A stretch of DNA of 64,000 nucleotides, taken from contig CAVWFA010000009.1 of assembly GCA_963754085.1 (NCBI GenBank), positions 7,086-71,085 of the forward strand, written 5' to 3'. The translations under genes and the position numbers were made by a program. The notes beneath the pieces are model-generated. The model saw only the letters and a program-made list of their open reading frames with translations, ran no database searches and had not been told where the DNA came from. Origin of the DNA: Candidatus Aminicenantes bacterium (GTDB lineage Bacteria > Acidobacteriota > Aminicenantia > Aminicenantales > Saccharicenantaceae). Positions 1 through 25,224 of this stretch are shown here, piece by piece. The stretch's first letter is position 1; each line of letters opens with the position of its first letter.

Positions 1-753
1 CCCTTCGGCCACCACCACCAGCCCGTAGGGCCGCCTGGCTGATATCTTTTCCTCCAACCTGGCCGCCAGCATCTTCAGATCGCAGGGGATCTCGGGGATC
101 AGCACGGCGTCCGCGCCAACCGCAATGCCGGCCTGCAGGGCCAGCCATCCGGCCTGCTCTCCCAGGACCTCCACCACGGCGATCTTGCGGGCCGATTGGG
201 CCGCCTGACGGGCCTTGTCGAGCATTTCGATGGTGACGCTGAGGGCGCTGTTGAAACCGAAGGACACCGCGGTGGCGGCGATGTCGTTCTCGATCGACCG
301 GGGGATGCAGACCGTATTGAGCCCTTTGCGATGGAGCTTGTAGAAAATGCTCAGCCCCCGGCCGCCGACGACGGAGATCAAGGCATCGATCCGCTCCGCC
401 TTCAGCCTTTTCAAAAGCTCATCGGACAAGTCCAATTCCTCGACCATCTTGTTTTCATTGACCGTGCGGACATGGAACGGATCGACCCTGGCCGCTTGGC
501 CGAGGATGCCTCCGCCGGCCGGATCCAGATTCTCGACCAGTTGGGGGCTGAGGGGCACCAGCCCGCCATCGGGGTAGCGTTCCGGGCGCAGCAACCCGCT
601 AAATCCGTCCCGGATGCCGATCATCTCCCATCCCAGTTTTCCGGCCGCGAGGGCCGCCCCCATGACCACGGCATTCATCCCCGGGACGAAACCGCCGCCC
701 ACATTGATGGCGATGCGTCTGAGGAAGCCGGCATGGCCTGCGTCTCTGCTCAT
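1..753 (-). CDS. pfkA: 6-phosphofructokinase (PfkA family), 3' end cut by the window edge
   Basis: Absent from the ORF track because it runs off the window. My reverse translation from the ATG at 753..751 gives MSRDAGHAGFLRRIAINVGGGFVPGMNAVV...LISVVGGRGL...CIPRSIENDI...VVEVLGEQAGWLAL, which are typical PFK nucleotide/sugar-phosphate motifs. Confidence 0.8.
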   Translation of the reverse strand, partial: MSRDAGHAGFLRRIAINVGGGFVPGMNAVVMGAALAAGKLGWEMIGIRDGFSGLLRPERYPDGGLVPLSPQLVENLDPAGGGILGQAARVDPFHVRTVNENKMVEELDLSDELLKRLKAERIDALISVVGGRGLSIFYKLHRKGLNTVCIPRSIENDIAATAVSFGFNSALSVTIEMLDKARQAAQSARKIAVVEVLGEQAGWLALQAGIAVGADAVLIPEIPCDLKMLAARLEEKISARRPYGLVVVAEG

Positions 754-793
754 AATGGACCTCTCTTGTTCGTGCGTTATAGAACCTCCGGTA

Positions 794-816
794 CCGCGCG
801 GCTTTCGGCCGCGCGG
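794..816 (-). terminator. GC-rich stem-loop between the GRE and pfk (terminator or RNA-stability hairpin)
   Basis: ccgcgcggc-tttcg-gccgcgcgg: perfect 9-bp stem with a 5-nt loop, 25 nt after the GRE stop. There is no clear U-tract. Confidence 0.45.
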
Positions 817-840
817 CACCGGTTCCGTCGTATTTCAGCG

Positions 841-3267
841 CTAGCTCTTGCCCTCGAAAGTCTGTTCCGTGCGGGCGATGATCTCGTCCTGCACGCCCTT
901 GTGCAGCTTGGTGAAGAACGCGCTGAACCCGGCCACCCGGACCACCAGGTCGCGGTACTTTTCCGGGTGCTTCTGCGCGTCCCGCAGGATGTTGGTGTCC
1001 AGCACGTTGAACTGGATGTGGTAGCCGTCGTTGTCGAAATAGGTCTTGACCAGCCTCAGCACGTTGTCCCGGCCCTTGCGCGTCTTCAGCTGATCGGGCG
1101 GGAGCTTCATGTTCATGTGCGTCGCGGTGAACTTGATCGCGTCCTGGCTCTTGGCGGCGGACATCACCAGCGCGGTCGGTCCGTTGACGTCGGTGCCCGG
1201 CATGGCCGACAGGGATCCGTCGGTGAGCGCCACGCCGGCCTTCTTGCCGTTCGGCAGCGCCCCGGTCACCAGGCCCATCAGGTTGTGGATGCTCTTGGTG
1301 TAGGCGTCGGGCGCCGACTTGATGTCCTTGCTGATATAGTTCCCGCCTCCGAGGACGTTCTGGAAGGCCTGGAAGATGCTTTCGTACACCCGGTGCGTCA
1401 GCTTGTTCACCTCCGGAATGTCGTTGCCGTGCTTGGGAGCCTCGTAACACAGCTTCCCGATCCGCTCGTAGTCCCCCGTAAAATCGGCCTCCAGGGCTTT
1501 CCGCAGCTCGGCCATGGTCAGCTTCTTGGTGTCATAGACCAGGTGCTTCACGGCCATCAGGCTGTTGGCGGCGTCGATGCCGCCCACGACGATCTGGGCG
1601 ACCGTGTAGTAGTTGGCGCCGCCGTTCCAGACCTCGGTGCCGCTCTCGATGCAGCCCTTGGTCAGGATCGAGCGCCAGGCGACGGGCAGGTATTCGGCGC
1701 AGAGAATGCTGGCGATCCAGGCTTCCTTGCGCAGGGTGTCCTCGCAGAACTGCAGCTGCTTCTCGAAGGCCGCGTACAGCTCCTCGAAATCCTTGAAGGT
1801 TTCGGGATTGCCGGTCTTGGGCCCGATCTGCTGCTTGAACATGACGTCGTAGCCGTCGTTCAGCGTCAGGGAAATGACCTTGCCGAGGTTGGGCTGGCCT
1901 TCCACGGGGTGACCGGTCTCATAGGGAATGTAGCTGCCGACGCAGGCGCCGATGCAGGTCCGCCGGGCCTTTTCGAGCGTTATGCCCGTCTTGGAGTCGC
2001 CGAACAGGTTCAGGGCCCGCTTGACCATCACGTCGCCGTTCGTGATCTGGGGCATGCCGATGCCGGTGCCGATGACGTCCAGCACCTTTTCCAGGAACTT
2101 GCCGCTCATCCGTTCGGTGTAGGCGCAGGTCAGCGGAGGCTGCGGCAGGTGCAGATAGGCCGCGGCGTCGAGGACATTGTAGTCCATTTCCGCGGTGGCA
2201 TCCTCGCCTTCCGGGGTGAAGCCTCCGAGGGTGATGCTCTGACCCAGGTCGGCCGAGTTCTGCTTGGAGACCATCTCTCCGTAGTAATACCCGATCTCGT
2301 TCAGCTTGATGAACAGGTTCTCGAGCATGAAGACGGCTTCTTCCGGCCCGACGATCCCGGCCGCCTTGTCGCGCTGGTAGTACGGCTCGAGGTTCTGGCC
2401 CAGGTATGCCTCGGAATAGCCGCAGCCCACCTGCTCGATCTCCGCGCAGATGTGGCAGAAGAAATGGGCCTGGATGGCTTCTCTCAGGTTCCGGGCAGGA
2501 TGCTCGGGCACCCACTCGCAGGTTTCGGCGATGTCGATCAGCTCCTGCTTCCGGACGGGATTCGTCTCTTTGGCCGCCATGTCCCTGGCCAGCTCGGCAT
2601 AACGGTGCGCCAGGCGGATGACGGCCTTCATGGTGATGAGGCAGGATTCGTAGAAATAGAACTTGGGGGCGTTCGGCAGCCTCATCTCGAGGGCGGCCTC
2701 CCTCTCCTGGACGTCCTTGATCACGCTGGCCAGCCCTTCGTTGTAGACCCGGGGGTAGTTCAGGTTGCCGCCGCCGCCGGGCCAGGACATGAACTCCGCG
2801 ACCAGCCCGGTCTTATAGACAGGCGAGGGGTCATAGCCGTACTTCTTGATGAAGATCTCGTCGGCCCGCGGCCGCAGGGCCCGCTTGTCCCAGTAATCGA
2901 GCGCCCAGGCATTGGCCTTGCGGTCTTCCGGGGTCTTCGATTTTTCCACCGTCTTCTCTTCCTTCATCCACTCCACGTTCCACTCCGGATAGGTGTAGAT
3001 GCCGTTGACGGTGCTGGCCATGCTGCCCACGAGGAGATTGTCGTCGATGTACAGCTTCTTCCGCTCGATCAGGGTGGCGAAGAACTTGGCTCTCCGGAGG
3101 ATCTGCTGGTCGCCGACGGTGCTCTCGTAGACCTCGGCCATGATCCGGATGCGCTCGTTGTCGATCGCCTGAGGCGTGCTCAGGTACTGTTCCTTCAGCC
3201 GATCGACCCTGGCGTTGTCGACCTTGACGCGGCCCGTGGTGACCGCCTTGTTCGTTGTTTGTTCCAT
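841..3267 (-). CDS. glycyl radical enzyme, PFL2/glycerol-dehydratase-like class, substrate unknown
   Basis: 808 aa. The C-terminal glycyl-radical motif is VVRVAGFSAFFTKL. The N-terminus is PFL2-type (RVDRLKEQYL...ILRRAKFF...YIDDNLLVGS). The Cys-loop region reads RRTCIGACVGSY, and there is a LPNGKKAGVALTDGSLSAMPGTDVNGPTA loop. RBS aaaggag lies upstream of the ATG. Confidence 0.85.
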   Translation of the reverse strand: MEQTTNKAVTTGRVKVDNARVDRLKEQYLSTPQAIDNERIRIMAEVYESTVGDQQILRRAKFFATLIERKKLYIDDNLLVGSMASTVNGIYTYPEWNVEWMKEEKTVEKSKTPEDRKANAWALDYWDKRALRPRADEIFIKKYGYDPSPVYKTGLVAEFMSWPGGGGNLNYPRVYNEGLASVIKDVQEREAALEMRLPNAPKFYFYESCLITMKAVIRLAHRYAELARDMAAKETNPVRKQELIDIAETCEWVPEHPARNLREAIQAHFFCHICAEIEQVGCGYSEAYLGQNLEPYYQRDKAAGIVGPEEAVFMLENLFIKLNEIGYYYGEMVSKQNSADLGQSITLGGFTPEGEDATAEMDYNVLDAAAYLHLPQPPLTCAYTERMSGKFLEKVLDVIGTGIGMPQITNGDVMVKRALNLFGDSKTGITLEKARRTCIGACVGSYIPYETGHPVEGQPNLGKVISLTLNDGYDVMFKQQIGPKTGNPETFKDFEELYAAFEKQLQFCEDTLRKEAWIASILCAEYLPVAWRSILTKGCIESGTEVWNGGANYYTVAQIVVGGIDAANSLMAVKHLVYDTKKLTMAELRKALEADFTGDYERIGKLCYEAPKHGNDIPEVNKLTHRVYESIFQAFQNVLGGGNYISKDIKSAPDAYTKSIHNLMGLVTGALPNGKKAGVALTDGSLSAMPGTDVNGPTALVMSAAKSQDAIKFTATHMNMKLPPDQLKTRKGRDNVLRLVKTYFDNDGYHIQFNVLDTNILRDAQKHPEKYRDLVVRVAGFSAFFTKLHKGVQDEIIARTEQTFEGKS

Positions 3268-3374
3268 TCGTATTCTCCTTTGATCCGATTATTGTTGCCT
3301 GTAAGACTCAAACTCTGACCCGACGCCCGAAGCTATCCGTATTTCGCCTCCTTCTTCGGTCAATTTCATGGTCT

Positions 3375-3575
3375 TCACTTGGACATCGACATCGACCGGG
3401 CCATCATGCCGCCGGAGATGTTCCGGGCCTTGAACCCGTTCTGGAGAAGGATGCGCGTCGCGTAGTAGGCGCGCTGGGCCGAGCGGCAGATGACGTGGAT
3501 CTCGCGGTCGCGGGGAAGTTCGGCCAGGCGCGCCCGCAGCTGCGGCAGGGGGATGTTGACCGCGCCGACTTTCAT
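3375..3575 (-). CDS. 66-aa mini-rhodanese (C-terminal half of a rhodanese domain with an intact CRSAQR loop)
   Basis: The sequence MKVGAVNIPLPQLRARLAELPRDREIHVICRSAQRAYYATRILLQNGFKARNISGG matches the C-terminus of the 9680..11368 protein. Nucleotides 3390..3566 match 9695..9871 with 3 mismatches in 177 nt. It has its own GGAGGAA RBS and an upstream promoter motif. Confidence 0.6.
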   Translation of the reverse strand: MKVGAVNIPLPQLRARLAELPRDREIHVICRSAQRAYYATRILLQNGFKARNISGGMMARSMSMSK

Positions 3576-3664: not shown

Positions 3665-4030
3665 TCATCCGGCCTGGCCCCGGGCCTTCTCGACGGTCTC
3701 GAGGCCCGCCGAGCTCGATATGGTATCGAATCTGATCTCCGGCCGTTTGGCCGCAAACTCCAAGGCGAGGAGCAGGTTGCGGTATTCGTCCGAACGGAGA
3801 TGACGGTCCATATCTTCACCGTTCCCCCAGACTTGCTCCAGCATGAGGACGTTCTTATCCTGCAGGTCCGCGTAGACGTGGCAGCTGAGGCACCCGGGAT
3901 CGTCTCTCGACAATTCCGCCACAGGCCTGAGGATCTCCAAGACCGCCTGGATCTTCGAAGGAGGCACGGTCATCCGGATGGTCGCCTGGATCATGGGGTT
4001 CTCGGTTTCAGCCGCTGCTAGCAGGGTCAT
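3665..4030 (-). CDS. ABM-type (dimeric alpha/beta-barrel) monooxygenase-like protein
   Basis: MIQATIRMTVPP...CLSCHVYADLQDKNVLMLEQVWGNGEDMDRHLRSDEY resembles the antibiotic-biosynthesis-monooxygenase fold. The true start is probably the internal Met at 3994, which fits the sigma-54 promoter position. Confidence 0.6.
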   Translation of the reverse strand: MTLLAAAETENPMIQATIRMTVPPSKIQAVLEILRPVAELSRDDPGCLSCHVYADLQDKNVLMLEQVWGNGEDMDRHLRSDEYRNLLLALEFAAKRPEIRFDTISSSAGLETVEKARGQAG

Positions 4031-4042
4031 GCCGTCCCCTAT

Positions 4043-4058
4043 TGCCGAAACCGTGCCA
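4043..4058 (-). promoter_or_regulatory. candidate sigma-54 (-24/-12) promoter
   Basis: Minus strand reads TGGCACGGTTTCGGCA against the consensus TGGCACG-N4-TTGCW. The GG and GC dinucleotides are at the exact spacing. It sits directly downstream of the sigma-54 activator gene and about 50 nt upstream of the Met at 3994. Confidence 0.55.
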
Positions 4059-4180: not shown

Positions 4181-6697
4181 TCATTTCGACAGGCCCTGGC
4201 CGGACCGCGTGATGCCCAGCTTTTTCATTTTCGATAGGAGCGTCGTCCTTTTCAGGCCCAGGATCTCGGCGGCTCCGCCCGGCCCGGAGATGCGCCAGCC
4301 GGTCTTCTTCAGAACGGCCGCCAGATGTATCCGCTCCATGTCTTTGAGGTTGCCGGCCATAAGGGCTTCGGAAGACGCACGCTGGGGCACCTCCATGTCC
4401 AGTGTCTTTCCCCTGCTCAGGATCATGGCGTGTTCGACGAGGTTCCTCAGCTCCCTGACGTTGCCCGGCCAGGAATAGGATTGGAGGGCCGCCATCGTCT
4501 TCTTGGGGATGCTCTCGATCTCTTTTCCCATCTTCTTCTGGAATTCCTTGACGATCGCCCGGACCAAGAGGGGGATATCTTCGGGATGCTCGCGGAGGGG
4601 CGGGATAAGGATCGGGAACACGTTCAGCCGGTAGAAGAGGTCCCGGCGGAACTTGCCCTCCTCCACCTCCCGCCCGATGTCCCGGTTGGTGGCGGCGATG
4701 ATGCGGACGTTCACGCGAACGGACGTCGACGAGCCCAAGCGCTCGAAGCTGCCCTCTTCGAGAAAGCGAAGCAATTTGCTCTGGAGCTCGAGGGGCAGCT
4801 CGCCGATCTCGTCGAGAAAGAGGGTCGATCCGTCGGCCATCTCGAAGCGGCCCACCATCCGCGTCAGCGCGCCGGTGTAAGCCCCCTTTTCCCGGCCGAA
4901 CAGCTCGCTCTCGATCAGCGTGGGCGGCAGAGAGGCGCAGTTGACCGTCACCAGCGGCCGGTCTTTTCGGGAGCTCAGGCCGTGGATGGCCCGGGCCAGC
5001 AGCTCCTTCCCTGTTCCGGTTTCCCCCAGGAGGAGGACCGTGGAGTCCGTTCGGGCAACCTGCTCTGCCTGGCTGAGGACCTTCTTCATCGGAGCGCTTC
5101 GCCCCACGATGTCCGAATGCTCGGCCAGGAGCTTGATCTCCTCCTGCAGATAGATGTTCTCGATTTCGAGCCGCTGCCTGAGGCCCTCGATCTCTTTGAG
5201 ACGTGCTTTAAGCTTCTCCTCCATCTGCTTGCGGGCGAGCGCGTTGGCAAAGATCTGCGAGATCATTTTGAGCGTATCGACGAGTTCACCCGGCCAATTC
5301 CGCTCTCCCTTCAAAGTGTTGAACGCCAGCACCCCAAAGGCCGGGCCATCGCCAACGTATAGCGGCAGGACGGCCAACGATTTGGCCCCCGAGCGCCGGA
5401 TGGCCTCGAGATCATCGGCGGCTTCGACGGGCAGGTCGGCGATCCGGGAGACGATAACGGGCTCTTTTGCCAAGGCCCGCTTCATCGCCCACGGAAAATG
5501 GACCCGGGCGTCATCGACACCCATCGTCTCTGCGGAAAAGCCCGGAGAGATATGGTAATGCGTTATCAAGAAGGTCCCTGATGCTTCCGGAGAGAACTGC
5601 CAGAGCAAACAGCGGTCGAATCCCAGGCCTTCGCATATCTCTTTCTGCGCGGCATTGATCTCGCCGTCCAGTCGGTCGATGGGGATATTGATGAACCGCG
5701 TAGAAATTTCGGCCAGCAGTTTCTCGACTTTCGCGCGGTCCAACAGCTGCTGTTGCGCCCGCTTGCGGTCCCCGATGTCCTCGACGATCGAAACGAACCA
5801 CTGCGGCCGGCCGGTCTCGTCGCGGACCAGGGCGACCGTCAGCTCGATCCACACCAGCCCGCCGTCCTTGCGGATGTACCGCTTCTCCATGGAGTAGGAA
5901 TCGATCTTTCCGGACAACAGCCGGCCGGCTTGCGCGAGATCAACCTCGAGGTCGTCGGCATGCGTGATGTCCTGGAACCTGAGCTCCAGCATCTCCTCGC
6001 ACGAGTAGCCCACGATCTCGCAGTATCTCCGGTTGACGCGGAGGAATTTGCCCCTGGGGGAAACATGGGCGATGCCGGCGGCGGCCTGCTCGAACGTGAT
6101 CCGGAACCGTTCCTCGCTCGCCCGCAGGTCATCCTCGATGCGTTTCCGGTTCAGCGCGTTGGCGAACACCTGCGCGACGAGTCCGAACCGGGTCGCGTCC
6201 GTCTCCGTCCAAATTCTCTCTTCGCGCACGGATGCGAAAGCGAGCAGGCCGAAGACCGGCCCGTTTCCAACCGACAGGGGAAGAGACGCCGTGGACTTGG
6301 TGGTAAACGCGCGGTGGGTCTCCAAGTCGCGACTGGCTTCCGGCGGGAAGTCGGCCATTCTCGAGACGATGACGGGCTCCCCGGCCAGGACCTTCCGCAT
6401 CGTCCAGGGGAAGAAGCGGCGGGCCGACATGTCCTCGGGGGGGGAAGGGGACTCCGGGGGAAAGTGCCAATGCGTCAGGAACAGGTCTCTCGGATTTCCC
6501 TCCGGAACCTGCCAGAGGGAGGAGCGATCGACACCGAGGAGCTCGCAGACGCGCCGCTGGGCGTCTCGAAGGCCGCTATCAATCTGGCCGGTGGGTAGAT
6601 CGATGAAGCGGGTGGAGATCTCGGACAGCAGCGTCTCGAACCGCAGCCGTTCCTCGAGGCTTTGCTCCGATGTCGCCGTTTGACCGGGCTTATTCAT
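4181..6697 (-). CDS. sigma-54-dependent transcriptional activator, GAF-PAS-GAF-AAA+-HTH(Fis)
   Basis: 838 aa. Motifs seen: Walker [31 protein letters not shown] (a GAFTGA variant), [11 protein letters not shown] and a C-terminal [24 protein letters not shown]. The N-terminus holds two GAF-like modules flanking a PAS domain ([17 protein letters not shown]). Confidence 0.9.
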
Positions 6698-7311: not shown

Positions 7312-8166
7312 TCAGAAGTCGGGGTCCTTGAAGGTCGGCTCCCGGCCTTCGGTGAAAGCCAGGATCCCCTCGACCCGGTCGGGGTGCACGACCGAGCGCC
7401 AGTGCTCGTCCATCATGATCGCGGCGGCCTGCTCGACAGGCTCGCCTTGCCCGTTCTGAACGGCGCGCTTGACCGACTGGACCGCCGTTGGGGAGTTGGC
7501 CGCGATCTTCTCCGCAATGCTGAGCGCTCCGGCCATCAACTCTGTTCGGGGATAGATTTCGTTGACCATGCCAAGCCGGTGCGCCTCTTGAGCCGTGATC
7601 GGTTCGCCCGTCATGAGCATCTGCATGGCCTTCCCCGGAGGGAGGACACGGGGGAGGAAGATCGGCCCGCCGCCGCCGGCGCTCAGGCCGACCAGCGCTT
7701 CGGGTTGCCCGAAAACGGCGTCGTCGGAGGCGATGATAAAGTCCGTGCTGATGGCGATCTCGCAGCCGCCGCCAAAGGCCATCCCATGGACAGCGGCGAT
7801 GATCGGCCGGCGCAGCTGGCGCAGCGTGTAGAGAACGCGGTCGAAGACCAGGCGCTGGCGCAGCCATTGCTCCTTCGTCATGTTCTTGCGCTGGTACAGG
7901 TCGCCGCCGACGGAGAAGGCTCTGTCCCCGGCTCCGGTGATGATGGCGGCGCGCACGGTGGCGCGGGCGGCGATCGTCTCGAGAACCTCGATCAGCTGTT
8001 CCGCCAATTCCGTCGTGATCGCGTTGTCGGCATGCGGCCGGTTGAGTGTGATGATCGCCACGCGCCCGCCGGAGACGTACTCGACGAGCACGAGCTGATC
8101 GGGCTCTCTATCAGAGGTCGGCGGACGGTAGCCCATTTTCCTCATGCGTGTTTGGGGATCGTTCAT
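7312..8166 (-). CDS. enoyl-CoA hydratase/isomerase (crotonase) family protein
   Basis: VAIITLNRPHADNAI...AAIITGAGDRAFSVGGDL...PIIAAVHGMAFGGGCEIA is the crotonase oxyanion-hole signature. The start is set at the Met preceded by GGAGGAA (8166), not the ORF-track start at 8244. Confidence 0.85.
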   Translation of the reverse strand: MNDPQTRMRKMGYRPPTSDREPDQLVLVEYVSGGRVAIITLNRPHADNAITTELAEQLIEVLETIAARATVRAAIITGAGDRAFSVGGDLYQRKNMTKEQWLRQRLVFDRVLYTLRQLRRPIIAAVHGMAFGGGCEIAISTDFIIASDDAVFGQPEALVGLSAGGGGPIFLPRVLPPGKAMQMLMTGEPITAQEAHRLGMVNEIYPRTELMAGALSIAEKIAANSPTAVQSVKRAVQNGQGEPVEQAAAIMMDEHWRSVVHPDRVEGILAFTEGREPTFKDPDF

Positions 8167-8229
8167 TGCAGATTCCTCCTTCAGCGATGATTCGATGTCA
8201 GCGGGCAGCGCCAGCGGAGATTTCGGGAA

Positions 8230-8263
8230 GGCGCCAGGCGGCAACGTTCTGCCGCCTGGCGCC
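8230..8263 (-). terminator. 13-bp perfect stem-loop downstream of the DszB-like gene
   Basis: ggcgccaggcggc-aacgttct-gccgcctggcgcc. No U-tract follows. Confidence 0.45.
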
Positions 8264-8329: not shown

Positions 8330-9523
8330 TTATCCGACCCGCTTGTTCTCCGCGAACAGCTTGGTCACATCGGGGAGCTTGGCCGCAGTCTTCTTGGTCC
8401 ACTCAAACTCGAGCAGCTCCTTCGCCGCCTGTTCGAGGAATTCCGGCGCGGCCCACTTCTTCACATCGAAGTCGTTCTTGATGTAGCCGTGGCTCAGCAT
8501 GAAGTTCTTCCCGACCTCGACGGCGGCAAGATTCAGAGGTGAAAGGTTGGGCACCAAGTCAACATCTCTGATACCTTGGTAAGTGGCCTCGACGTCACGG
8601 TAGAACGTCTGTTGGTCGAGAATTTCCGCCGCGGCATACTTGTTCTGATTGGCCCAGCGACCGGCCCGGATCATGCCCTTCATGAACGTGACGGCGAGTT
8701 CGGGATGCTCCTTGGCCATGACGTCGGTGCATGTGATGGCTGCAGGAATGTTGGCCACCTGCAGGCGCCAGTCCGGATAGCGGGAGAGATCCTCGATCGC
8801 CGCGAACTTGCCCGTCGCCTCGCAAACCTGTTGAAGCGGCTTGGTCTGCAAGTACAACGCATCGATGACCCCTTTTTCCAGCGCCGACTCCAATGGACGG
8901 AAGGCCAAATCGCGCTTATGATCACGAGCTAACCACAGATCAATCGAAAGCTCCATGGTCGCTTTCACCATTGCCGGCGCGTTATACCAGTCATCCGCGT
9001 AGGGGAACTCGACAAGTTCGATGTCGTCCATGGTCATGCCGTTCATCCGGAGCATCAGCTCGATCCCCTGGTGCTCCTGAATGCGCCACCAGTCGTTCTT
9101 GATCTTGTTCATGCTCTTGGAAATGCCGATTTTCTTACCTTTCAAATCGGACATCCGGTAAATATCGTCCTTGGCGCGCACCATCATAACGCCGCCTTCG
9201 GCCGGCATCTGCGTCACCCCAAGCAGTTTGGTCCGGCGGATATCTGCATGAACTTCGATGGGCGGAAACAAACCGCCGAAGCGGATGAGATTTTCCTGGT
9301 TGTGGATGTAGTGGGGATACCAGTCGGTCTCAGCGGTCGACCGCATGTAGGCAAACTTCACCCCGATCTTCTTAAACTCCTTCTTGGTCAAGCCCAAGCC
9401 TTCATCCACGTTGCTGGCGGACACAAGCGGGCAATTGGTGTAGTAGACCTCTTTCCAGTTCAAGGGAACGACCTTCAATTTCGTGTTCTCGAACGTCGTT
9501 TCTTTGATTTTTGTCTCAGCCAT
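8330..9523 (-). CDS. DszB-like desulfinase homologue (NMT1/THI5/SsuA periplasmic-binding-protein fold, no signal peptide)
   Basis: 397 aa. YYTNCPLVSASNV, LIRFGGLFPP, GKKIGISKSM and KKWAAPEFLEQ align by eye with the 2'-hydroxybiphenyl-2-sulfinate desulfinase DszB as I recall it (TYSNCPVPNA with the catalytic Cys, YTRFGGEIPP, GRRIGVSASA, DQWAAPEFLNN). No export signal. AAGGAGAG RBS. Confidence 0.55.
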   Translation of the reverse strand: MAETKIKETTFENTKLKVVPLNWKEVYYTNCPLVSASNVDEGLGLTKKEFKKIGVKFAYMRSTAETDWYPHYIHNQENLIRFGGLFPPIEVHADIRRTKLLGVTQMPAEGGVMMVRAKDDIYRMSDLKGKKIGISKSMNKIKNDWWRIQEHQGIELMLRMNGMTMDDIELVEFPYADDWYNAPAMVKATMELSIDLWLARDHKRDLAFRPLESALEKGVIDALYLQTKPLQQVCEATGKFAAIEDLSRYPDWRLQVANIPAAITCTDVMAKEHPELAVTFMKGMIRAGRWANQNKYAAAEILDQQTFYRDVEATYQGIRDVDLVPNLSPLNLAAVEVGKNFMLSHGYIKNDFDVKKWAAPEFLEQAAKELLEFEWTKKTAAKLPDVTKLFAENKRVG

Positions 9524-9679: not shown

Positions 9680-11368
9680 TCATTTAGCTGCAAGCATCGA
9701 CCGGGACATCATGCCGCCGGAGATGTTCCGGGCCTTGAACCCGTTCTGCAGAAGGATGCGCGTCGCGTAGTAGGCGCGCTGGGCCGAGCGGCAGATGACG
9801 TGGATCTCGCGGTCGCGGGGAAGTTCGGCCAGGCGCGCCCGGAGCTGCGGCAGGGGGATGTTGACCGCGCCCGGCACGGCGGCCACGGCGATCTCCGGCG
9901 GGTTGCGCACGTCGAGGAGGAACCCGTCGCCCAGGGAGTCCCAGTGGCTGAGCGGCATGTCGCCCCGCAGGACGTCGGCCGAGACCATGCCCGCGAAGTT
10001 GACGGGATCCTTGGCGCTGCCGAACGGCGGCGCGTAGCAGAGCTCGGATTCCTCCAGGTCGTACACCGTCGCCCCCATCTGGACGGCCATGGCCAGGGCG
10101 TCGATCCGCTTCTCGACGCCGTCCTTGCCCAGCGCCTGGGCCCCGAGGAGGCGCCCGTCGGATTTCCGGAAGAGGACCTTCAGGACGATCGTCTTGGCGC
10201 CCGGGTAATACCCGGCGTGCGAGTTCGGGAAGAGGTAGATCTTTTCGTAATCCTTCTGGCCTTGCCGGACCAGCTGCTTCTCGTTGGCGCCGGTCGTGGC
10301 CACCGTGGCCCCGAAGATCCCGATGACCGAGGTGCCCTGGGTGCCGCGGAAGCGGGAGTCGCGCCCGGCGATGACGTCGGCCGCGATCCGGCCCTGCCGG
10401 TTGGCCGGCCCGGCGAGGGGGATGAGCGTCCATTCGCCGGTGACGAAGTCCTTGACCTCGACCGCGTCCCCGACGGCGAAGATGTCCGGGTCGCTCGTGT
10501 GCATCTGGTCGTCGACCCGGATCCCGCCGCGCTTGCCGATCTCGAGCCCGGCCGCCTTGGCCAGCTCGGTCTCCGGACGCACGCCGATGGCCAGGATGAC
10601 CATGTCCGCCGGATAGGTCTTGCCGGACTTCGTGAGCACCTCGAGCGCGCCGTCGGCCGTCTGCTTGAATCCGGCCACCGCGTCGTTGAGCGCGAGGCGG
10701 ACGCCGTTCTCTTCCATGTGGCGCTCGACGAGGCTGGCGCACTCCGGGTCGAGCGGCGCCATGACGTGATCGAGCATCTCGACCAGCGTCACTTCGAGGC
10801 CGCGGTGGACCAGGTTCTCGGCCATCTCCAGGCCGATGTACCCGCCGCCGACCACGACCGCCCGCTTGACCTTGTCCAGCGGCCGGAAGCCCGTGGCCGA
10901 GCCCTCGCCGGTCCAGGCGCTCGAACCCCGGTCGATCCATTCCCGGATCTCCCGGGCGTCCGGCACGGTCCGGACCGAGAAGATGCCCGGCAGGTCGATC
11001 CCGGGCAGGGGCGGACGGATCGGGGCCGCCCCGGGCGACAGCACCAGCTTGTCGTACTTTTCGGTCGTGACTTCGCCCGTCACGTGGTTCTTGAGGGCCA
11101 CGGTCTTCTCTTTCGGCGAGATCCCGACCGCCTCGCAGCGCGTCCGGCAATCGATGCCGAACACGGCGCGGAAGGTCTGCTCGTTGGACACGAGCAGGCT
11201 GGCCTCCTTTTCGATGACGCCGCTGACATGGTAGGGCAGCCCGCAGTTCGCGTACGAAACGTACGGCCCGCGCTCCACCATGAGGATCTCGGCCTTCTCG
11301 TCCAACCGGCGCAGGCGCGCCGCGCACGACGCTCCGCCGGCCACTCCGCCGACAATGACGACTTTCAT
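9680..11368 (-). CDS. CoA-disulfide reductase / NAD(P)H persulfide-polysulfide reductase-like flavoprotein with C-terminal rhodanese domain
   Basis: 562 aa. Motifs seen: MKVVIVGGVAGGAS FAD motif, the redox Cys in SYANCGLPYH, a second dinucleotide fold VVVGGGYIGLE, and a C-terminal rhodanese LLDVRNPPE...HVICRSAQRA. Confidence 0.85.
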   Translation of the reverse strand: MKVVIVGGVAGGASCAARLRRLDEKAEILMVERGPYVSYANCGLPYHVSGVIEKEASLLVSNEQTFRAVFGIDCRTRCEAVGISPKEKTVALKNHVTGEVTTEKYDKLVLSPGAAPIRPPLPGIDLPGIFSVRTVPDAREIREWIDRGSSAWTGEGSATGFRPLDKVKRAVVVGGGYIGLEMAENLVHRGLEVTLVEMLDHVMAPLDPECASLVERHMEENGVRLALNDAVAGFKQTADGALEVLTKSGKTYPADMVILAIGVRPETELAKAAGLEIGKRGGIRVDDQMHTSDPDIFAVGDAVEVKDFVTGEWTLIPLAGPANRQGRIAADVIAGRDSRFRGTQGTSVIGIFGATVATTGANEKQLVRQGQKDYEKIYLFPNSHAGYYPGAKTIVLKVLFRKSDGRLLGAQALGKDGVEKRIDALAMAVQMGATVYDLEESELCYAPPFGSAKDPVNFAGMVSADVLRGDMPLSHWDSLGDGFLLDVRNPPEIAVAAVPGAVNIPLPQLRARLAELPRDREIHVICRSAQRAYYATRILLQNGFKARNISGGMMSRSMLAAK

Positions 11369-11966: not shown

Positions 11967-12875
11967 TTATCGACCTCCTGGCGAGATGTCGCGGCCCGCT
12001 AACGGGCCGGCTCGCTCTTCAGCGTCTTTCCTTCCGGCCACCTTCAAGACGAGCATCAGCAGCAGGTTGGCGGGAGCCATGATGGCGCCGAAGACAACGA
12101 GCGGAGCCAGCACGGGCAGATCGGGAAAGCTCCGGCCCGCGATGGCGATGCACAGGGCGACGTTGCGCATGCTGCTGGCGGTGGCCAGGATCCCCCGCGT
12201 CCGCGTCCGCGGCCCTCCGACGATCCAGCCGATGAGCATCGAGACGAGGATGAGGACGATGACGCCGACGAGCACCCTCGGGCCGCCCCCGCTCTTCGCC
12301 CAGCTGGACAGAGACCGGGTCCTGACGATGACGACGATAAAGGCCAGGGTCGCGATGAGGGAGACCGGTCCGCCGAGCTTGCGGGCGACGGCCGCGGCCC
12401 GGTCGTGAACGGCGATCCCCAGGACCAGCGGGAGGATCGAAAAGAGCGCCAGATACAGGACAGCGTTCACGTAGGGGACGTTGATCGTCAAGCCCCGGGG
12501 CAGGACGAGCGAGATGAGGATCGGGGAGATGATGACCGAGAGGAGCGAGAGCAGGAAAGCCGTCGCCCCGGCGTAAGCGAGCATCCTCTCTTCCTTCGTC
12601 TTCGTCAGGAACTGGAGCGCGCCGAGACCGCCCGGGGCGCAGGACAGGAGGATCAGCGCCAGGGCGTTCTCCGGCTTGAGCGCGAACGCCTTGGCCGCCA
12701 GGACCCCCACGGCGGGGATCAGGATGAAATTGGCGATGAAGACCCGCACGAGCCAGCTTCTGTCCCGGACGACGGACAGGATCTCGTCCTTGCCGACCTT
12801 CAGGCCGATGCCCAGCATCGATCCCACGAGAAAGACATAGAACAGGGCCCTGGTCAAAGGATCCAGGATGAACAT
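11967..12875 (-). CDS. bile acid:Na+ symporter (BASS/SBF) family transporter
   Basis: 302 aa polytopic protein. FLVGSMLGIGLKV...FILIPAVGVL...LILLSCAPGG matches BASS-family signatures. Its stop lies 1 nt from the next gene's ATG. Confidence 0.7.
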   Translation of the reverse strand: MFILDPLTRALFYVFLVGSMLGIGLKVGKDEILSVVRDRSWLVRVFIANFILIPAVGVLAAKAFALKPENALALILLSCAPGGLGALQFLTKTKEERMLAYAGATAFLLSLLSVIISPILISLVLPRGLTINVPYVNAVLYLALFSILPLVLGIAVHDRAAAVARKLGGPVSLIATLAFIVVIVRTRSLSSWAKSGGGPRVLVGVIVLILVSMLIGWIVGGPRTRTRGILATASSMRNVALCIAIAGRSFPDLPVLAPLVVFGAIMAPANLLLMLVLKVAGRKDAEERAGPLAGRDISPGGR

Positions 12876-20144: not shown

Positions 20145-22502
20145 TTATTGCCTCATCATGATGGCCTTCAGCGCGGCCTCGTCATCCTTGATCATCTCGC
20201 CGCTCACATCGACCGTGACGCCGTGGAGCTTGCCGGTGAACTTGAACGGAGGGTCGTACTTGTCCCACACCGGCGAACCGCCGTCGGCGCCGCAGACGAA
20301 GCCCCCGCCCAGTCCGAGCGACAGGGGCATGGTGAGCGGGATGTCGACCTGCCCGACCAGCCGGCCGTCGATATAGAGCTGGCCGCGGCCCGGCGCGCCC
20401 TTGCCGCTCTTGACGTCGGGCTTGCCGGTCACCTCGAACTCGAACCGCAGCTTGTGGCGCCCCTCGGGAACGGGAACGTTCGATTCCGCGTGATAGAACT
20501 GGCTGCCCACGTAGTTGTAGACATAGTGGAGCTTGCCGTCCTGCACGTAGACGGCGAAGCCGCCTTGGACATCGCCGGCGGACAACAGGACTCCTTCGGC
20601 GCCCCCCTTGGGGATCTCGGCGTCCGCCGTGATGCTGTGGGGCCGGTTCAGCACGGTGGGGCAGGCGTTGATCGGGACCGCCTGCGTGCCGGGATAGTAG
20701 GTGTAGCTGTTGCGGGCGACGGCGATCTGCGGCCGGGGGTCGGCGAACCGCAGCGTGCCGCGCGAGTCGACCGGCAGGACCTTGTACTTGCCGGCCTCGA
20801 CGTACCAGGTCGCGATCATCTCGATCAGCTTGGCCCTGTTCTCGGAGGCGAGGTTGTGGTTCTCGGCCCAGTCCTTCTCGATGTGGTAGAGCTCCCAGCC
20901 TTTCGCGTCCAGCTCGGTCAGCTTGTCCTTGTCGATCGGCGCTCCGAAGAACAGGCCCGCTTCCGTGAAGGACGTCCCCGGCCACGGGCAGACGGCGCGC
21001 CAGCCGTCATGATAAATGGACCGGTGGCCCATCATCTCGAAGTACTGGGTGACGTGCTTGCTGGGCGCCTTGGCCTCGTCGAGGGCGTGGGCGAAGCTCA
21101 ACCCCTCGATGGGCGCCTGCGTGACGCCCTTGACGGCGGCCGGGGTTTCGAGGCCGAGCATCTCGAGCACCGAGGGGACCATGTCGATCGCATGGGCGTA
21201 CTGGGTGCGGACTTCGCCCTTCGCCTTGATGCCCTTGGGCCAATGGACGATGAACGGGTCGCTGATGCCGCCGCGGTAGGTCTCCCGCTTCCAGCGGCGG
21301 AACGGGGTGTTGCCCGCGAAGGTCCAGCCCCAGGCATAGTGGTTGAAGGTGTTCGGCCCGCCCAGCTGGTCGATCATGGCCAGGTTCTGCTTCAGGTCGT
21401 CGGGCACGTTGTTGAAGAACTTGTTCTCGTTGACCGATCCGTTCGGCCCGCCTTCCGAGCTGGCGCCGTTGTCGGAGATGAACATGATGATCGTGTTGTC
21501 CCATTCGCCGATCGACTTGAGGAATTCGAACAGGCGGCCGTAATGGTAGTCCGTGTGGCTCAGGAACCCGGCGAACACCTCCATCATCCGGGCATACAGC
21601 TTCCTCTCGTCGGCCGAGAGCTTGTTCCAGTCCTGCACGTCGGGATCGTGGCGCGACAGCTCGGCGTCGGGCGGGATGATCCCCAGCTCCTTCTGGCGCT
21701 TGAACGTCCGCTCGCGGTAGGCGTCCCAGCCGTCGTCGAACTGGCCCTTGTACTTGTCGGCCCACTCCTTGGGGACGTGGTGAGGGGCGTGCATCGCCCC
21801 GGGACAGAAATACATGAAAAAGGGCTTGTTCGGCGCGACCTGCTTGGAGTCGGCGATGAAGCTGATCGCTTTGTCGGTCAGGTCCTCGGTCAGGTGATAG
21901 CCTTCGTCCGGCGTCTTTTCGGGCTCGACGCTGTGGTTGTCGTACACCAGCTCCGGATAGTACTGGTGCGTGTCGCCGCCGAGGAATCCGTAGTAGCGCT
22001 CGAACCCGCGGCCCAGGGGCCAGCGATCGTACGGACCGGCCGCCGAGATCTGGTCCGCGGGGGTCAGATGCCACTTGCCGATCGCGAAGGTGTTGTAGCC
22101 GTGCTGGAGCAGGATCTCGGAGAGCATCCCGTTCTCGAACGGCATGTAGCCGTTGCCGCCGGGGTATCCGGTCGAGCCCTCGGTGATGCACGACATGGCG
22201 TTGGAGTGGTGGTTGCGCCCCGTCAGGATGCACGAGCGCGTCGGCGAGCACAGCGCGGTGGTGTGCATGTTGTTGAAGAGCAGGCCGTTCTTGGCCAGCG
22301 CGTCGATGTTCGGCGTCTTGATCGGGCTGCCGTAGCAGCCCATCTGGCCGAAGCCGGTGTCGTCCTGGACGATGAACAGGACGTTCGGCGCGCCCTCCTT
22401 GGCCCGCAGCGGCTGGGGCCAGGCCGGGCTGGACACATCAAAAGTCCTTCCGATCACGCCGTTGAAGGCGGCACCGGGCTTGTACTCTTTTAGAACGGCC
22501 AT
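20145..22502 (-). CDS. arylsulfatase (formylglycine-dependent, Cys type)
   Basis: 785 aa from the ATG preceded by AAGGAGGG. Motifs seen: PNVLFIVQDDTGFGQMGCYGS, TALCSPTRSCILTGRNHH (C-x-P-x-R) and HAPHHVPKEWADKYKG. Confidence 0.9.
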   Translation of the reverse strand: MAVLKEYKPGAAFNGVIGRTFDVSSPAWPQPLRAKEGAPNVLFIVQDDTGFGQMGCYGSPIKTPNIDALAKNGLLFNNMHTTALCSPTRSCILTGRNHHSNAMSCITEGSTGYPGGNGYMPFENGMLSEILLQHGYNTFAIGKWHLTPADQISAAGPYDRWPLGRGFERYYGFLGGDTHQYYPELVYDNHSVEPEKTPDEGYHLTEDLTDKAISFIADSKQVAPNKPFFMYFCPGAMHAPHHVPKEWADKYKGQFDDGWDAYRERTFKRQKELGIIPPDAELSRHDPDVQDWNKLSADERKLYARMMEVFAGFLSHTDYHYGRLFEFLKSIGEWDNTIIMFISDNGASSEGGPNGSVNENKFFNNVPDDLKQNLAMIDQLGGPNTFNHYAWGWTFAGNTPFRRWKRETYRGGISDPFIVHWPKGIKAKGEVRTQYAHAIDMVPSVLEMLGLETPAAVKGVTQAPIEGLSFAHALDEAKAPSKHVTQYFEMMGHRSIYHDGWRAVCPWPGTSFTEAGLFFGAPIDKDKLTELDAKGWELYHIEKDWAENHNLASENRAKLIEMIATWYVEAGKYKVLPVDSRGTLRFADPRPQIAVARNSYTYYPGTQAVPINACPTVLNRPHSITADAEIPKGGAEGVLLSAGDVQGGFAVYVQDGKLHYVYNYVGSQFYHAESNVPVPEGRHKLRFEFEVTGKPDVKSGKGAPGRGQLYIDGRLVGQVDIPLTMPLSLGLGGGFVCGADGGSPVWDKYDPPFKFTGKLHGVTVDVSGEMIKDDEAALKAIMMRQ

Positions 22503-22538
22503 GATTCCCTCCTTTATCAAACAAACCTACACGGGCTA

Positions 22539-22584
22539 TCTGTATCCTGAAGCAATGTGGCGCGTCAATGGGACCTTGGGCTAA
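22539..22584 (-). promoter_or_regulatory. candidate sigma70-type promoter with conserved upstream 16-mer (copy c)
   Basis: Minus strand reads TTAGCCCAAGGTCCCA-TTGACG-18 nt-TACAGA, about 35 nt upstream of the sulfatase ATG at 22502. Confidence 0.5.
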
Positions 22585-22606
22585 GGCGGCCGGCCGGCTC
22601 ACCCGC

Positions 22607-23355
22607 TCACAGCAGGATGATGAGGAGGGCCGTATAGAGGGCCCCGCCGCAAAGAAAGGCCAGGGGCCGCGCGTCGTTCTCTTTCGGCAGTTCCGAGACC
22701 ATGGCGTTCAGGATGATCCCTCCTGAGAGGAACCCCAGGAGGGCCGCCGCGAAGAACGGGCTGAATTCCACGAAAATCCCCACCGCCCATCCGGCCAGCG
22801 GGGCGAGGGCGAAAACATAACGGACCGTGCGATCGTACCAGGAACCGTATTCCTGCAAGAACGAATAGTCCAACGAGAGGAAGTGGAGCCCCAGGGCGGC
22901 GGCGTAGAGGGCGATCGGCGTCGCCCCTTCCTCGAAGCTCCGGACCGCCAGATATCCGGCCAGCCAGACATAGGCCAGGAAACCCGCGGCGTGGACCGCC
23001 CGGCGGAAACGGTCCTCTCCGCCGTGGGCGTCCCGGGATCGGCAGGCCGATGGGCCTTCGCGATCATCTGCTTGAGCGCGTAGAAGGCCATGAATCCGAC
23101 CAGGGCGGCCAAATAGACCCTCAAGGAGAAGACGGGCAGGGCCATCCGGGCTTCGTTATGGCCGAGGGCCTCTCTCGCGGCCTCGAGCTCGGGCAGAAGG
23201 TGGACGAAAACGTAAGCGATCGTCACCCCGGCTCCGAACGACAGGATCCTCCTCCGATGGCGGCGGATGGCCTCGGGGATCAGGACATGGCTGCCGAGAA
23301 GGAAGATGGCCGAGAACACGAGGGCTGCGGCCAGCGGCCCGATCTCGAACGGCAT
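22607..23355 (-). CDS. polytopic membrane protein, possibly a ZIP-like cation transporter; one frameshift
   Basis: Two ORF-track pieces (22708..23355 and 22607..22873) join through an alternative frame (AHGGEDRFRRAVHAAGFLAYVWLAGYL...LGLHFLSLDYSFLQEYG). The shift is near 23030-23045. Motifs FVHLLPELE and LNAMVSELPKE are the only functional hints. Confidence 0.4.
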
Positions 23356-23389
23356 GGGGGGCCTCCTTTGACGATTCCGTGTATCCGGG

Positions 23390-24319
23390 CTACCGGCCGA
23401 ACCACCGGTATTGGAATGCCAGGCCGAAGACGGTGAACTTTCCCCCGATGCGCGTGATCACCCCGGTCGAGCCGCTGAATTTCAGGGAATAGGCCCGCCC
23501 GATCGGGACGGAGAATGTGAAGCCGATCCGGGAGTTCTCCTGCCGGTCGTCTTTGACGACTCCGTCGATGGTCGTCTCGCCCCCGGCGTACAGGGTTCCG
23601 TCGGCGGCGAGCCAGAGTCCGGGACGGAAAGTGTAGCTCGCGTGGGCCTGGCCCGACCAGAGCGGGGTTTGGGCGCGCAGCTGCCCGCCGTAGAAATCCG
23701 GGTTGTCGGTGAAGAGCCAGACGGCCATGGCCACGTCCAGGGTCCATTTTCCCGTCGGGAACGAGAATCCGAGCTCCGGCTTGAAGGCCCAACGGTTGGC
23801 CCCGATATTGACCAGCTTGTCGGGATAGTACTGACCCACCGGCGCCACGACCACCAGGCTGGCGCCGAGCGAGGGGCCCGGCTTGCGCAGGGCGAATTCC
23901 CGCGGCGTGAGCGCGCGGCCGCCCATCAGGTTCACGGCGAGGCGCAGCCGGAGATCTCCGAAGCCCGATCGCGTGATCTCCGTGAAATCCTCGCCGACCA
24001 TCCCGCTCATCTTGCCGAAGGCATAGGGGATGAGCACGGCCAGGCTGGCCGTGCGCCCCGCCAGGGCAAAGGTCCCGGAGTAGCCCGGGACGAACATGCC
24101 GAGGTCGGCCGTGACATCGGTGACCGGCACTGAAGGGTCGAGCAGGACATCTCCATACGAGTAGGCCGTGCCCAGGACGAGGAAATTCGCTTTGATCGGC
24201 ACCGCCGAATAAGCCCGCGGCTCGAGGTCCTGGCCGAACATGGTCCCCGCCAGGCCCAGGAGCGCCAAGCTTAAGAGCACACGGCCCGCGCGATAGGAGA
24301 GGGTTCCGGACATGATCAT
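23390..24319 (-). CDS. outer-membrane beta-barrel, MetA-pathway-of-phenol-degradation-like (hydrophobic-compound channel family)
   Basis: Signal peptide, then QDLEPRAYSAVPIKANFLVLGTAYSYG..., alternating beta-strand pattern and C-terminal FQYRWFGR. Confidence 0.65.
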   Translation of the reverse strand: MIMSGTLSYRAGRVLLSLALLGLAGTMFGQDLEPRAYSAVPIKANFLVLGTAYSYGDVLLDPSVPVTDVTADLGMFVPGYSGTFALAGRTASLAVLIPYAFGKMSGMVGEDFTEITRSGFGDLRLRLAVNLMGGRALTPREFALRKPGPSLGASLVVVAPVGQYYPDKLVNIGANRWAFKPELGFSFPTGKWTLDVAMAVWLFTDNPDFYGGQLRAQTPLWSGQAHASYTFRPGLWLAADGTLYAGGETTIDGVVKDDRQENSRIGFTFSVPIGRAYSLKFSGSTGVITRIGGKFTVFGLAFQYRWFGR

Positions 24320-24323
24320 CTCC

Positions 24324-25088
24324 TTATCTCGATGCGGGCTTTTTCAGGTCGAAGAGGATCGAGAGGTACCAGCGGAACTTGATCTTCATCCGGACCATCT
24401 GGTTCCGGTAGGGCCCTTCCTTGCAGAACCAGATCCGGAGATTGCCCTTCTTCCTCCAAACGTCTTTGGGGGCCCGGTCCGGCCCGGCTGTCTTCTCGAT
24501 GGCGTAGAGGACGATCTCGTAAACCCGAGCCTTGAGCGGCGAGTAGGTCTCGAGATCCTCGACCTCCATGCGGAAGATCCGCGGGATCCCCTTGAGGATG
24601 AACGGGGTGTCGATGACTTCCCCGACCTTGATGTCGTGCTCCATCAGATACTCGAGCGGCGCGAGGATGCAGCCGTAGCTCCCCTCGACCCTCGTCTCCG
24701 GGCCGTCGTTGCGGACAACGACGGCGTGGTCCGGGAAGAAGGTCATCCGTTCGGCCTGGGTCTTCTTGTTGGTCTTCAGGAAACCCGAGGAGGAGCTCCC
24801 GACGCCCCGCCCTTCGGCCACCGCTTGGTCGTCCACGGAACCGTCGGACCGGAGCGGATAGGTCTTGAGGACCTTGAACTCGCCGCCGTAGTCCCTGTTC
24901 TTCTTGACCTGTTCGGCGTTGGTCCCTCCGGCCATGCGCAGCGTCTTTTCGAGACGGCCGTCCTTCTTCTGCAGCGTCGACTCGATGGTCATGGACCCGG
25001 CGTCACCCAGGTTGCCGAGGAAGAAGACGTGGGCGCTGATGCCGTACTGGCCGGCCTGCTGACTTTCCGTCGCCGGGACCGCGGACAC
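24324..25088 (-). CDS. hypothetical protein (DUF3108-like?), N-terminus uncertain
   Basis: ORF-track protein of 254 aa from a GTG start. Upstream in frame there is a signal-peptide-like stretch (CLAVAFLFAASGG) with no usable start codon, so the 5' end may also carry an indel. Confidence 0.35.
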   Translation of the reverse strand: MSAVPATESQQAGQYGISAHVFFLGNLGDAGSMTIESTLQKKDGRLEKTLRMAGGTNAEQVKKNRDYGGEFKVLKTYPLRSDGSVDDQAVAEGRGVGSSSSGFLKTNKKTQAERMTFFPDHAVVVRNDGPETRVEGSYGCILAPLEYLMEHDIKVGEVIDTPFILKGIPRIFRMEVEDLETYSPLKARVYEIVLYAIEKTAGPDRAPKDVWRKKGNLRIWFCKEGPYRNQMVRMKIKFRWYLSILFDLKKPASR

Positions 25089-25224
25089 CGGGGCGGGCGC
25101 GGAAGCCCGTTCCTGAAGCTCCCGGCCGCCGGAGGCGGCGAAGAGGAAGGCGACGGCGAGACACGAGCCCCGTCACAACGGGCCGTTGGCGCCGATCGCG
25201 GACCCGACGGCCCCCTCCCGGATG

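Follow-up and report, generated by a model that had tools for sequence, protein, structure and literature searches.

A widespread, uncharacterised glycyl radical enzyme family without the eliminase glutamate, encoded next to a phosphofructokinase-like protein and a cognate activase

How might an oxygen-sensitive glycyl radical enzyme (GRE) operate when neither the glutamate of the characterised eliminases nor an activating enzyme seems to be at hand? This question is raised by a 64,000-nt stretch of DNA from a Candidatus Aminicenantes bacterium (GenBank assembly GCA_963754085.1, contig CAVWFA010000009.1, positions 7,086 to 71,085 of the forward strand), the whole of which we call the window. 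Close to its left edge, a gene on the minus strand (841..3267) codes for a GRE of 808 aa, which a preliminary description, made from the letters alone, had presented as an orphan with a Glu-less cysteine loop, no activase nearby and possibly an organosulfur substrate. Our analysis indicates that it belongs to a widespread family of intact GREs encoded with their own activase, and points, more tentatively, to an organosulfur anion as the compound on which it acts.

The gene has a good Shine–Dalgarno sequence and a coding-type base composition (GC content at third codon positions, GC3, of 0.90), and its product matches the Pfam models PFL-like (PF02901, 4.7e-142) and Gly_radical (PF01228, 4.9e-28). 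The motif RVAGFSAFF (residues 777–785) contains the radical glycine, Gly780, and the motif CIGACVGSY (residues 438–446) the thiyl cysteine, Cys442. The first of these opens a stretch (residues 777–799, RVAGF-SAFFTK-L-HKGV-Q-DE-I-IA-R) that matches the extended GRE fingerprint RVxG[FWY]x6-8[FL]x4Qx2[IV]x2R (PMC13450708). An AlphaFold2 (AF2) model with a 104-sequence alignment as input reached a pLDDT of 95.5 and a pTM of 0.94, and compares with all PFL2-class GRE structures at TM scores of 0.87–0.92; an earlier AF2 model from 27 close homologues (pLDDT 62, active-site loops below 50) was discarded. The modelled fold is canonical, with both domains of the GRE superfamily present, and the initial recognition of a clear PFL2-class GRE from its two motifs is borne out by domains, fingerprint and model alike.

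We then compared the predicted active site with those of the three best solved relatives, namely HypD (6VXC), glycerol dehydratase (GD, 1R8W) and propanediol dehydratase (PD, 5I2A). Pairwise HMMER alignments set C442-V-G444 against the C-V-E of all three, in agreement with the by-eye reading that a glycine stands in for the eliminase Glu. Of the 121 family members, 119 share this glycine and all have Cys442; the cysteine is also invariant in the 104-sequence superfamily alignment, where the consensus reads GCVE. Two further positions differ from HypD and GD. Gly166, in the GGGG portion of a WPGGGGNLNY loop (residues 162–171), aligns with and replaces the general-acid His of strand β-1 (GD H164/HypD H160, the PGH histidine), and Cys282 aligns with HypD D278 and GD H281, which contact the substrate in their respective structures. 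Within the family, little or no variation is seen at Gly780, Cys442, the WPGGGGNLNY loop, Cys282, E450, H453 and E456; Cys438 is not conserved (97 Cys and 24 Ala among the 121 members). The predicted active site is thus one without the eliminase Glu and His. The CXE glutamate hydrogen-bonds to or deprotonates the substrate hydroxyl, and according to a June 2026 review the CXE motif is retained in every characterised GRE eliminase and isomerase; at the position inspected by this CXE test for 1,2-eliminases and isomerases, the window GRE has Gly444. The GRE decarboxylases likewise carry a Glu at Cys+2 (E505 in HPAD, E502 in IAD) where the window GRE has Gly444, and its scores against their models are low (433 versus a cut-off of 1100 for IAD; 347 versus 1150 for HPAD).

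The absent glutamate had been presented as exceptional, and with respect to the characterised eliminases and isomerases this stands. Among the 133 nearest full-length cluster representatives, on the other hand, Glu is found at Cys+2 in 70 and absent from 63, and both Glu and His are missing in 53. Thus, the missing CXE Glu appears to mark uncharacterised chemistry, yet is not rare in sequence space. The five nearest clades (P0121, P0122, P0124, P0125 and P0126; 39–51% identical) display C-V-S/P or C-T-S at the cysteine loop and keep the equivalent of Cys282, which suggests that a larger uncharacterised superclade shares the loss of the Glu and has a second active-site cysteine on a different strand.

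The family itself is extensive. More than 120 database clusters are 77–99% identical to the window GRE, and a scan of one genome per species recovered 145 relatives, which places the family in at least 145 species; 80 loci were kept with their flanking DNA, and their GREs are 67–95% identical to that of the window. The hosts are spread over Acidobacteriota, Bacteroidota, Planctomycetota, Nitrospirota, Verrucomicrobiota, Chloroflexota and Desulfobacterota, with further members in Pseudomonadota, Actinomycetota, Gemmatimonadota, Ignavibacteria and Calditrichia, and they include the cultured strains Flavihumibacter profundi KCTC 62290 and Eudoraea adriatica DSM 19308. Beyond the family, similarity falls away: when 1.84 billion cluster representatives were searched exhaustively, the nearest clusters lay at 51%, 46% and then at most 42% identity, and no solved GRE is more than 33% identical, with the X-succinate synthases BSS and MASS among the more distant solved relatives. 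X-succinate synthases have a catalytic subunit of about 860 aa, beside which small FeS accessory subunits (beta and gamma) are encoded; the conserved neighbours of the present GRE are a PFK-like gene and the activase. The window GRE lies under every NCBIfam equivalog or subfamily cut-off, including those for HypD, CutC, HpsG, HpfG and the PflD type; the best score, for HypD, is 485 against a cut-off of 1100, and that for the PFL2-3 subfamily is 473 against 678. Hence, neither a Glu at the canonical position nor a place in a known GRE clade, the two outcomes against which the earlier reading had been set, emerged from the alignments and models. The family appears to be uncharacterised, widespread and close to no characterised GRE clade, and we found no description of it in the literature searched. 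Identity stays at 67–95% over more than 10 phyla, with no change at the catalytic Gly and Cys, and this marks its window member as an intact GRE on which purifying selection has been strong. In one deltaproteobacterial metagenome-assembled genome (MAG), a further and only distantly related GRE (30% identical to that of the window) is encoded some 8 kb beyond the family GRE on the downstream side (L030, 20035–22407).

Homologues of the window GRE are automatically named 'formate C-acetyltransferase', and a CoA-disulfide reductase (CoADR) and an enoyl-CoA hydratase among its neighbours would provide a CoA link for a pyruvate or 2-ketoacid formate-lyase. Like PflB and TdcE, it is a member of the GRE superfamily without CXE and with a second cysteine, which in those two enzymes is catalytic. 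However, the PFL cysteines are adjacent (C418, C419), whereas the second invariant cysteine here, Cys282, lies on a different barrel strand. The June 2026 review records two Cys-loop cysteines only in PFL and TdcE, and instead of this essential Cys-Cys pair the window GRE has A441-C442. Further, it scores 94 bits against a cut-off of 994 with the PFL model TIGR01255, and PFL is its most distant solved relative (E = 4.6e-24). We consider a formate-lyase very improbable.

If the enzyme is intact, where is its activase? In the 64-kb window no GRE-activase homologue was detected by tblastn (1e-8), and to this extent the initial observation stands; its extension to 20 kb on either side does not, as the downstream side of the minus-strand GRE gene consists of window positions 1–840, that is, 840 nt of readable DNA. 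The 520-aa radical SAM protein at 25225–26787 is of the SPASM type and, as had been supposed, no GRE activase. What the 840 nt do contain is the 5′ part (about 251 codons; 1..753, minus strand) of a gene of the phosphofructokinase (PFK) family (PF00365, 6.6e-57), which starts 87 nt past the GRE stop and is cut by the window edge; no minus-strand terminator-like site was found between the two genes. For 68 loci, 3 kb or more of DNA was available on the downstream side of the GRE; a radical-SAM activase gene is present in 67 of them and a PFK-like gene in 65. The order GRE, PFK-like protein, radical-SAM protein of 315–323 aa holds in every relative examined in detail, and these three genes occur in that order in the closest relative, a deltaproteobacterial MAG with 92.6% nucleotide identity (L080); the contig of a 99%-identical sequence (P0001) measures 3.9 kb and ends ahead of the PFK-like gene. 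The activase of the related loci passes the GRE-activase model TIGR02494 (314 bits versus a cut-off of 174) and carries the cluster motif CSLRCKWC.

The window probably shows no activase because it stops inside the PFK-like gene, and by analogy with the relatives the activase gene almost certainly lies roughly 1.2 kb past the left window edge. Since the activase follows the PFK-like gene in related loci, the 'orphan' status appears to be an artefact of the window edge and is contradicted by synteny. A true orphan or decayed GRE, with neither a cognate activase nor a catalytic function, could have pointed to the lack of an activase in the 64 kb, but only 840 nt downstream of the gene are covered, 67 of 68 related loci do have the activase, and the identity levels and invariant catalytic residues indicate strong purifying selection; we regard this explanation as exceedingly unlikely. 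Gene order across the relatives defines a predicted conserved core operon in which the GRE comes first, followed by the PFK-like protein and the GRE activase. The first and last members resemble the known PFL2-class 1,2-eliminases (HypD, 6VXC; glycerol and propanediol dehydratases, CutC, IslA/IseG and HpsG/HpfG) in several respects: the fold is common (TM 0.88–0.92), length, Gly-loop fingerprint and thiyl Cys position are shared, and the activase is of the same type (PFLE_PFLC family with a ferredoxin-like insert). They differ in that the eliminases are only 27–33% identical to the window GRE and in that a PFK-like gene stands between GRE and activase in loci of the present family.

The minimal clusters of Eudoraea and Flavihumibacter have a SAM synthetase (MetK) after the activase. 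The gene follows the activase in Flavihumibacter profundi (L002, 15375–16556) and in Eudoraea (L060, 15017–17536), where a ferredoxin/FAD/NAD-binding (ferredoxin-FNR) fusion comes next. MetK and the ferredoxin-FNR fusion plausibly furnish, from within the cluster, the SAM and the electrons that activation requires.

The PFK-like protein of the operon belongs to a non-canonical PFK subfamily. It falls under all NCBIfam PFK cut-offs, and we compared 58 core copies and 28 paralogues at the features that define a 6-phosphofructokinase, namely D103, D127, R171, the fructose-6-phosphate-binding R162, R243 and H249. The canonical GGDGS has become GG(R/Q)GL, with loss of the Mg-binding D103 (R/Q); PGTIDND has become PRSIEND, D127 being mostly E; R162 is replaced by K; MGR has become LG(E/A), with loss of R171; and H249 is replaced by P. 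These substitutions predict that the protein is not a standard fructose-6-phosphate kinase; it could phosphorylate another substrate, sense a ligand or serve as an accessory protein. Its homologues, when searched for, bore only the automatic name '6-phosphofructokinase' and brought no further context, and we found no precedent in the literature searched for a fixed pairing of a GRE with an atypical PFK-family protein. In the Bacteroidales loci L021, L026, L033, L035, L037 and L043 (at about 14.6–22 kb), the core operon is followed by tandem pairs of a PFK-like paralogue and a 382-aa protein, in which a region resembling a winged helix, at the N terminus, is combined with a CNCCSCCCG cysteine cluster and a 2x[4Fe-4S] ferredoxin domain.

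What the substrate might be is suggested by the genes around the core. In the window, an ABM-domain protein, a sigma-54 activator, a crotonase, a DszB-like protein, a CoADR–rhodanese fusion and an SBF (bile acid:sodium symporter family) transporter are all encoded at 3.6–12.9 kb. Counted over the 46 loci in which the GRE is flanked by 10 kb in each direction, the most frequent neighbours are the 382-aa winged helix–turn–helix, Cys-rich, 2x[4Fe-4S] protein, often with extra PFK-like paralogues (27 loci), the SBF transporter (25), the DszB-like protein (24) and the CoADR–rhodanese (CoADR-Rhd) fusion (24). A single-domain rhodanese (Rhd) and a signal-peptide-bearing, beta-rich outer-membrane protein are found in 16 loci each, the ABM-domain protein in 12, SulP and the sigma-54 activator in nine each, and an enoyl-CoA hydratase/crotonase in six. 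At least one of DszB-like protein, CoADR-Rhd, Rhd and SulP is present in 31 of the 46. Hence, the suggestion of an organosulfur substrate gains from the recurrence of DszB-like, CoADR-rhodanese, rhodanese, SulP and SBF genes beside the GRE in other phyla; the sulfatase that had also been invoked in its favour lies outside the conserved neighbourhood, and 15 of the 46 loci are without sulfur genes within 10 kb.

The DszB-like protein (8330..9523, minus strand) is a predicted cytoplasmic desulfinase homologue with the SsuA fold. Its sole match in the PDB is DszB, the 2'-hydroxybiphenyl-2-sulfinate desulfinase (2DE2), to which it is homologous (E = 1.4e-12) and whose cytoplasmic SsuA-type fold it shares. 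Its His71, Arg81 and Gly84 align with the sulfinate-site residues His60, Arg70 and Gly73 of DszB. All 39 sequences compared keep Cys31, which stands in an NCP motif near the N terminus and may correspond to DszB Cys27, an equation by motif resemblance only, as the alignment begins at DszB residue 57. The similarity to DszB is low, and the DszB-like protein differs further in having no DszA or DszC partners and an anaerobic context beside a GRE. The CoADR fused to a rhodanese domain (9680..11368, minus strand) is of the persulfide-reductase type and in many relatives lies directly upstream of the GRE. The SBF transporter (11967..12875, minus strand) is a recurrent neighbour; an ACR3 or arsenic-related reading of it was rejected, there being no ACR3 among its NCBIfam matches, which comprise only a generic BASS subfamily (below cut-off) and PanS. 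In the literature searched, we found no precedent for a GRE paired with a desulfinase homologue and a persulfide-reductase-type enzyme.

Because a desulfinase homologue, a persulfide-reductase-type enzyme, rhodaneses and anion transporters adjoin the GRE, we infer that an organosulfur anion is the likeliest substrate class. The explanation that we favour, while holding it tentatively, is that of a functional, activase-dependent GRE of an uncharacterised family that performs Glu-independent chemistry on such an anion. Here, the activase and SAM would place the radical on Gly780, from where it would move to Cys442, and the Cys442 thiyl radical would attack a small anionic substrate without Glu-assisted ketyl chemistry. 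A candidate route is H-abstraction followed by radical β-scission of a C–S bond, an alternative being one-electron oxidation of a sulfinate. The substrate might be a sulfonate, a sulfinate or a sulfonated hydroxy compound, perhaps phosphorylated by the PFK-like protein, with uptake or export via an outer-membrane barrel, SBF and SulP. Sulfite would come from the action of the DszB-like desulfinase on a sulfinate, and sulfane sulfur would fall to the rhodanese and the CoA-persulfide-reductase-type fusion. The loss of both Glu and His in a family conserved at about 70–85% identity across more than 10 phyla probably signifies a chemistry new for GREs. More speculatively, and with rather less confidence, GRE, PFK-like protein, activase, DszB-like protein and CoA-persulfide-reductase-type fusion might together form a new anaerobic organosulfur pathway of soil and sediment bacteria in more than 10 phyla, built on Glu-independent radical C–S chemistry (e.g., desulfonation or desulfination through β-scission or sulfinate oxidation) with a second active-site cysteine on another strand. 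If the organosulfur explanation is true, the cluster would represent a route for anaerobic turnover of sulfonates or sulfinates in soils and sediments. The two cultured hosts allow direct testing, and the GRE is a good biochemical target.

Several observations weigh against an organosulfur substrate. Among the 15 fully flanked loci that show none of the sulfur genes over 10 kb are those of the cultured Flavihumibacter and Eudoraea strains, with only GRE, PFK-like protein, activase and MetK. The sole universal partner of the GRE besides the activase is the PFK-like protein, whose role the organosulfur explanation leaves unexplained and which, judged by its lost canonical PFK residues, may be no kinase at all. 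Moreover, the invariant acid/base residues E450, H453 and E456 near the Cys loop could replace the missing Glu, and therefore eliminase-type chemistry may still operate.

These observations are shared with a different account, in which the substrate of the GRE derives from a sugar or polyol, an acid/base at a new position (E450, H453 or E456) takes the place of the CXE Glu, the PFK-like protein is the pathway kinase and the sulfur genes are island neighbours with no direct part, in parallel to the anhydroglycolysis isomerases YbiW and PflD. The near-universal PFK-like gene (65 of 68 loci), the sulfur-free third of the fully flanked loci (15 of 46), the invariance of the three acid/base residues beside the Cys loop, an aldose 1-epimerase upstream in Eudoraea and the fact that characterised GRE isomerases act on sugar phosphates are all in keeping with it. 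YbiW/PflD (1,5-anhydrohexitol-6-phosphate) and HplG are PFL2-class GREs like that of the window, and the sugar-phosphate pathway of YbiW and PflD is the nearest precedent for a GRE with a glycolysis-type enzyme. In contrast to the window GRE, to which they are 27–28% identical, these isomerases retain CXE (Glu443, Glu433 and Glu429), as do all known sugar-phosphate GREs, and their pathways include aldolases, none of which was found in the clusters of the present family; no isomerase is conserved there either. The PFK-like protein is without the Mg-binding D103, R171 and most of the residues that bind a sugar 6-phosphate, and the rare DszB-like protein, which co-occurs in 24 of 46 loci across phyla, is hardly incidental. 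We regard a carbohydrate-type substrate with a relocated base as improbable on balance, yet as a serious rival. A link between the PFK family and organosulfur compounds does have one precedent. SqiK is a PfkA-family sulfofructose kinase of the sulfo-EMP2 pathway and, by family and description, the sole case that joins PF00365 to organosulfonates; against the comparison, the PFK-like protein has lost D103 and R171, and neither an SQ isomerase nor an SFP aldolase is present in the cluster.

The nominally aerobic or facultative habit of several hosts (Eudoraea, Flavihumibacter, Methylobacter) would suit yet another account, namely a module that serves survival under anoxia or in the presence of reactive sulfur species and not catabolism, in which anoxia or sulfide stress switches the cluster on, the GRE performs a central-metabolic reaction required by facultative aerobes when oxygen is absent, and CoA-persulfide reductase and rhodaneses detoxify sulfane sulfur. 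CoADR–rhodanese fusions are known as persulfide reductases in sulfide-stress operons, and the SAM synthetase and ferredoxin–NAD(P)H reductase fusion of the minimal clusters, along with regulation by PAS and GAF sensors, fit such a module as well. However, no known central-metabolic GRE reaction fits a site with neither a Cys-Cys pair nor CXE, and the outer-membrane channel, SBF, SulP and desulfinase homologue point to a small molecule that is imported or exported. We hold this account to be unlikely.

Returning to the organosulfur explanation, the window also offers a predicted means of control. The sigma-54-dependent activator (4181..6697, minus strand), with a GAF-PAS-GAF-AAA+-HTH_8 architecture, likely regulates the ABM–GRE operon, and in this window expression would probably be under this adjacent gene. 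The ABM-domain protein (3665..4030, minus strand) recurs upstream of the GRE in other loci, often with a sigma-54 activator on its far side. Immediately ahead of the ABM gene, and next to that of the activator, is a sigma-54-type −24/−12-like element, TGGCACGGTTTCGGCA (4043..4058, minus strand), which is a weak consensus match only; across the window, matches to the sigma-54 promoter are fewer than expected by chance (nine versus 16). Several related loci have comparable −24/−12-like elements ahead of their ABM genes, and these are suggestive only.

The arrangement upstream of the GRE seems to have been disturbed. A small ORF with a truncated rhodanese domain and a CRSAQR loop (3374..3575, minus strand) lies directly upstream of the GRE, and a 177-nt direct repeat with 98% identity connects this ORF (3390–3566) to the 3′ end of the CoADR–rhodanese gene (9695–9871), 6305 nt away. 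As the CoADR–rhodanese gene abuts the GRE in many relatives, this repeat makes it look as though a 6.3-kb block, comprising the ABM, sigma-54 activator, crotonase and DszB-like genes, was inserted or rearranged between the two. The enoyl-CoA hydratase/crotonase family protein of this block (7312..8244, minus strand) is an occasional member of the neighbourhood.

Elsewhere, a 1272-aa ORF that joins an outer-membrane protein, a DszB-like protein and CoADR (L001/L007, 6160–9978) was rejected as Rosetta-stone evidence; it comes from a high-GC MAG built from long reads, the frame reads through low-complexity sequence at the junctions, and the fusion is probably a calling or assembly artefact. Comparison of the outer-membrane proteins unk269 and unk298 with the Phenol_MetA_deg-type and other outer-membrane proteins of the window revealed no similarity and no clue to an aromatic substrate. 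The window's Phenol_MetA_deg-type protein (23390–24319) is encoded between a 791-aa sulfatase (20145–22520) and the 520-aa radical SAM/SPASM protein, itself a possible sulfatase maturase (25225–26787); the stretch from 20145 to 26787 is a separate sulfur-ester module outside the conserved GRE neighbourhood.

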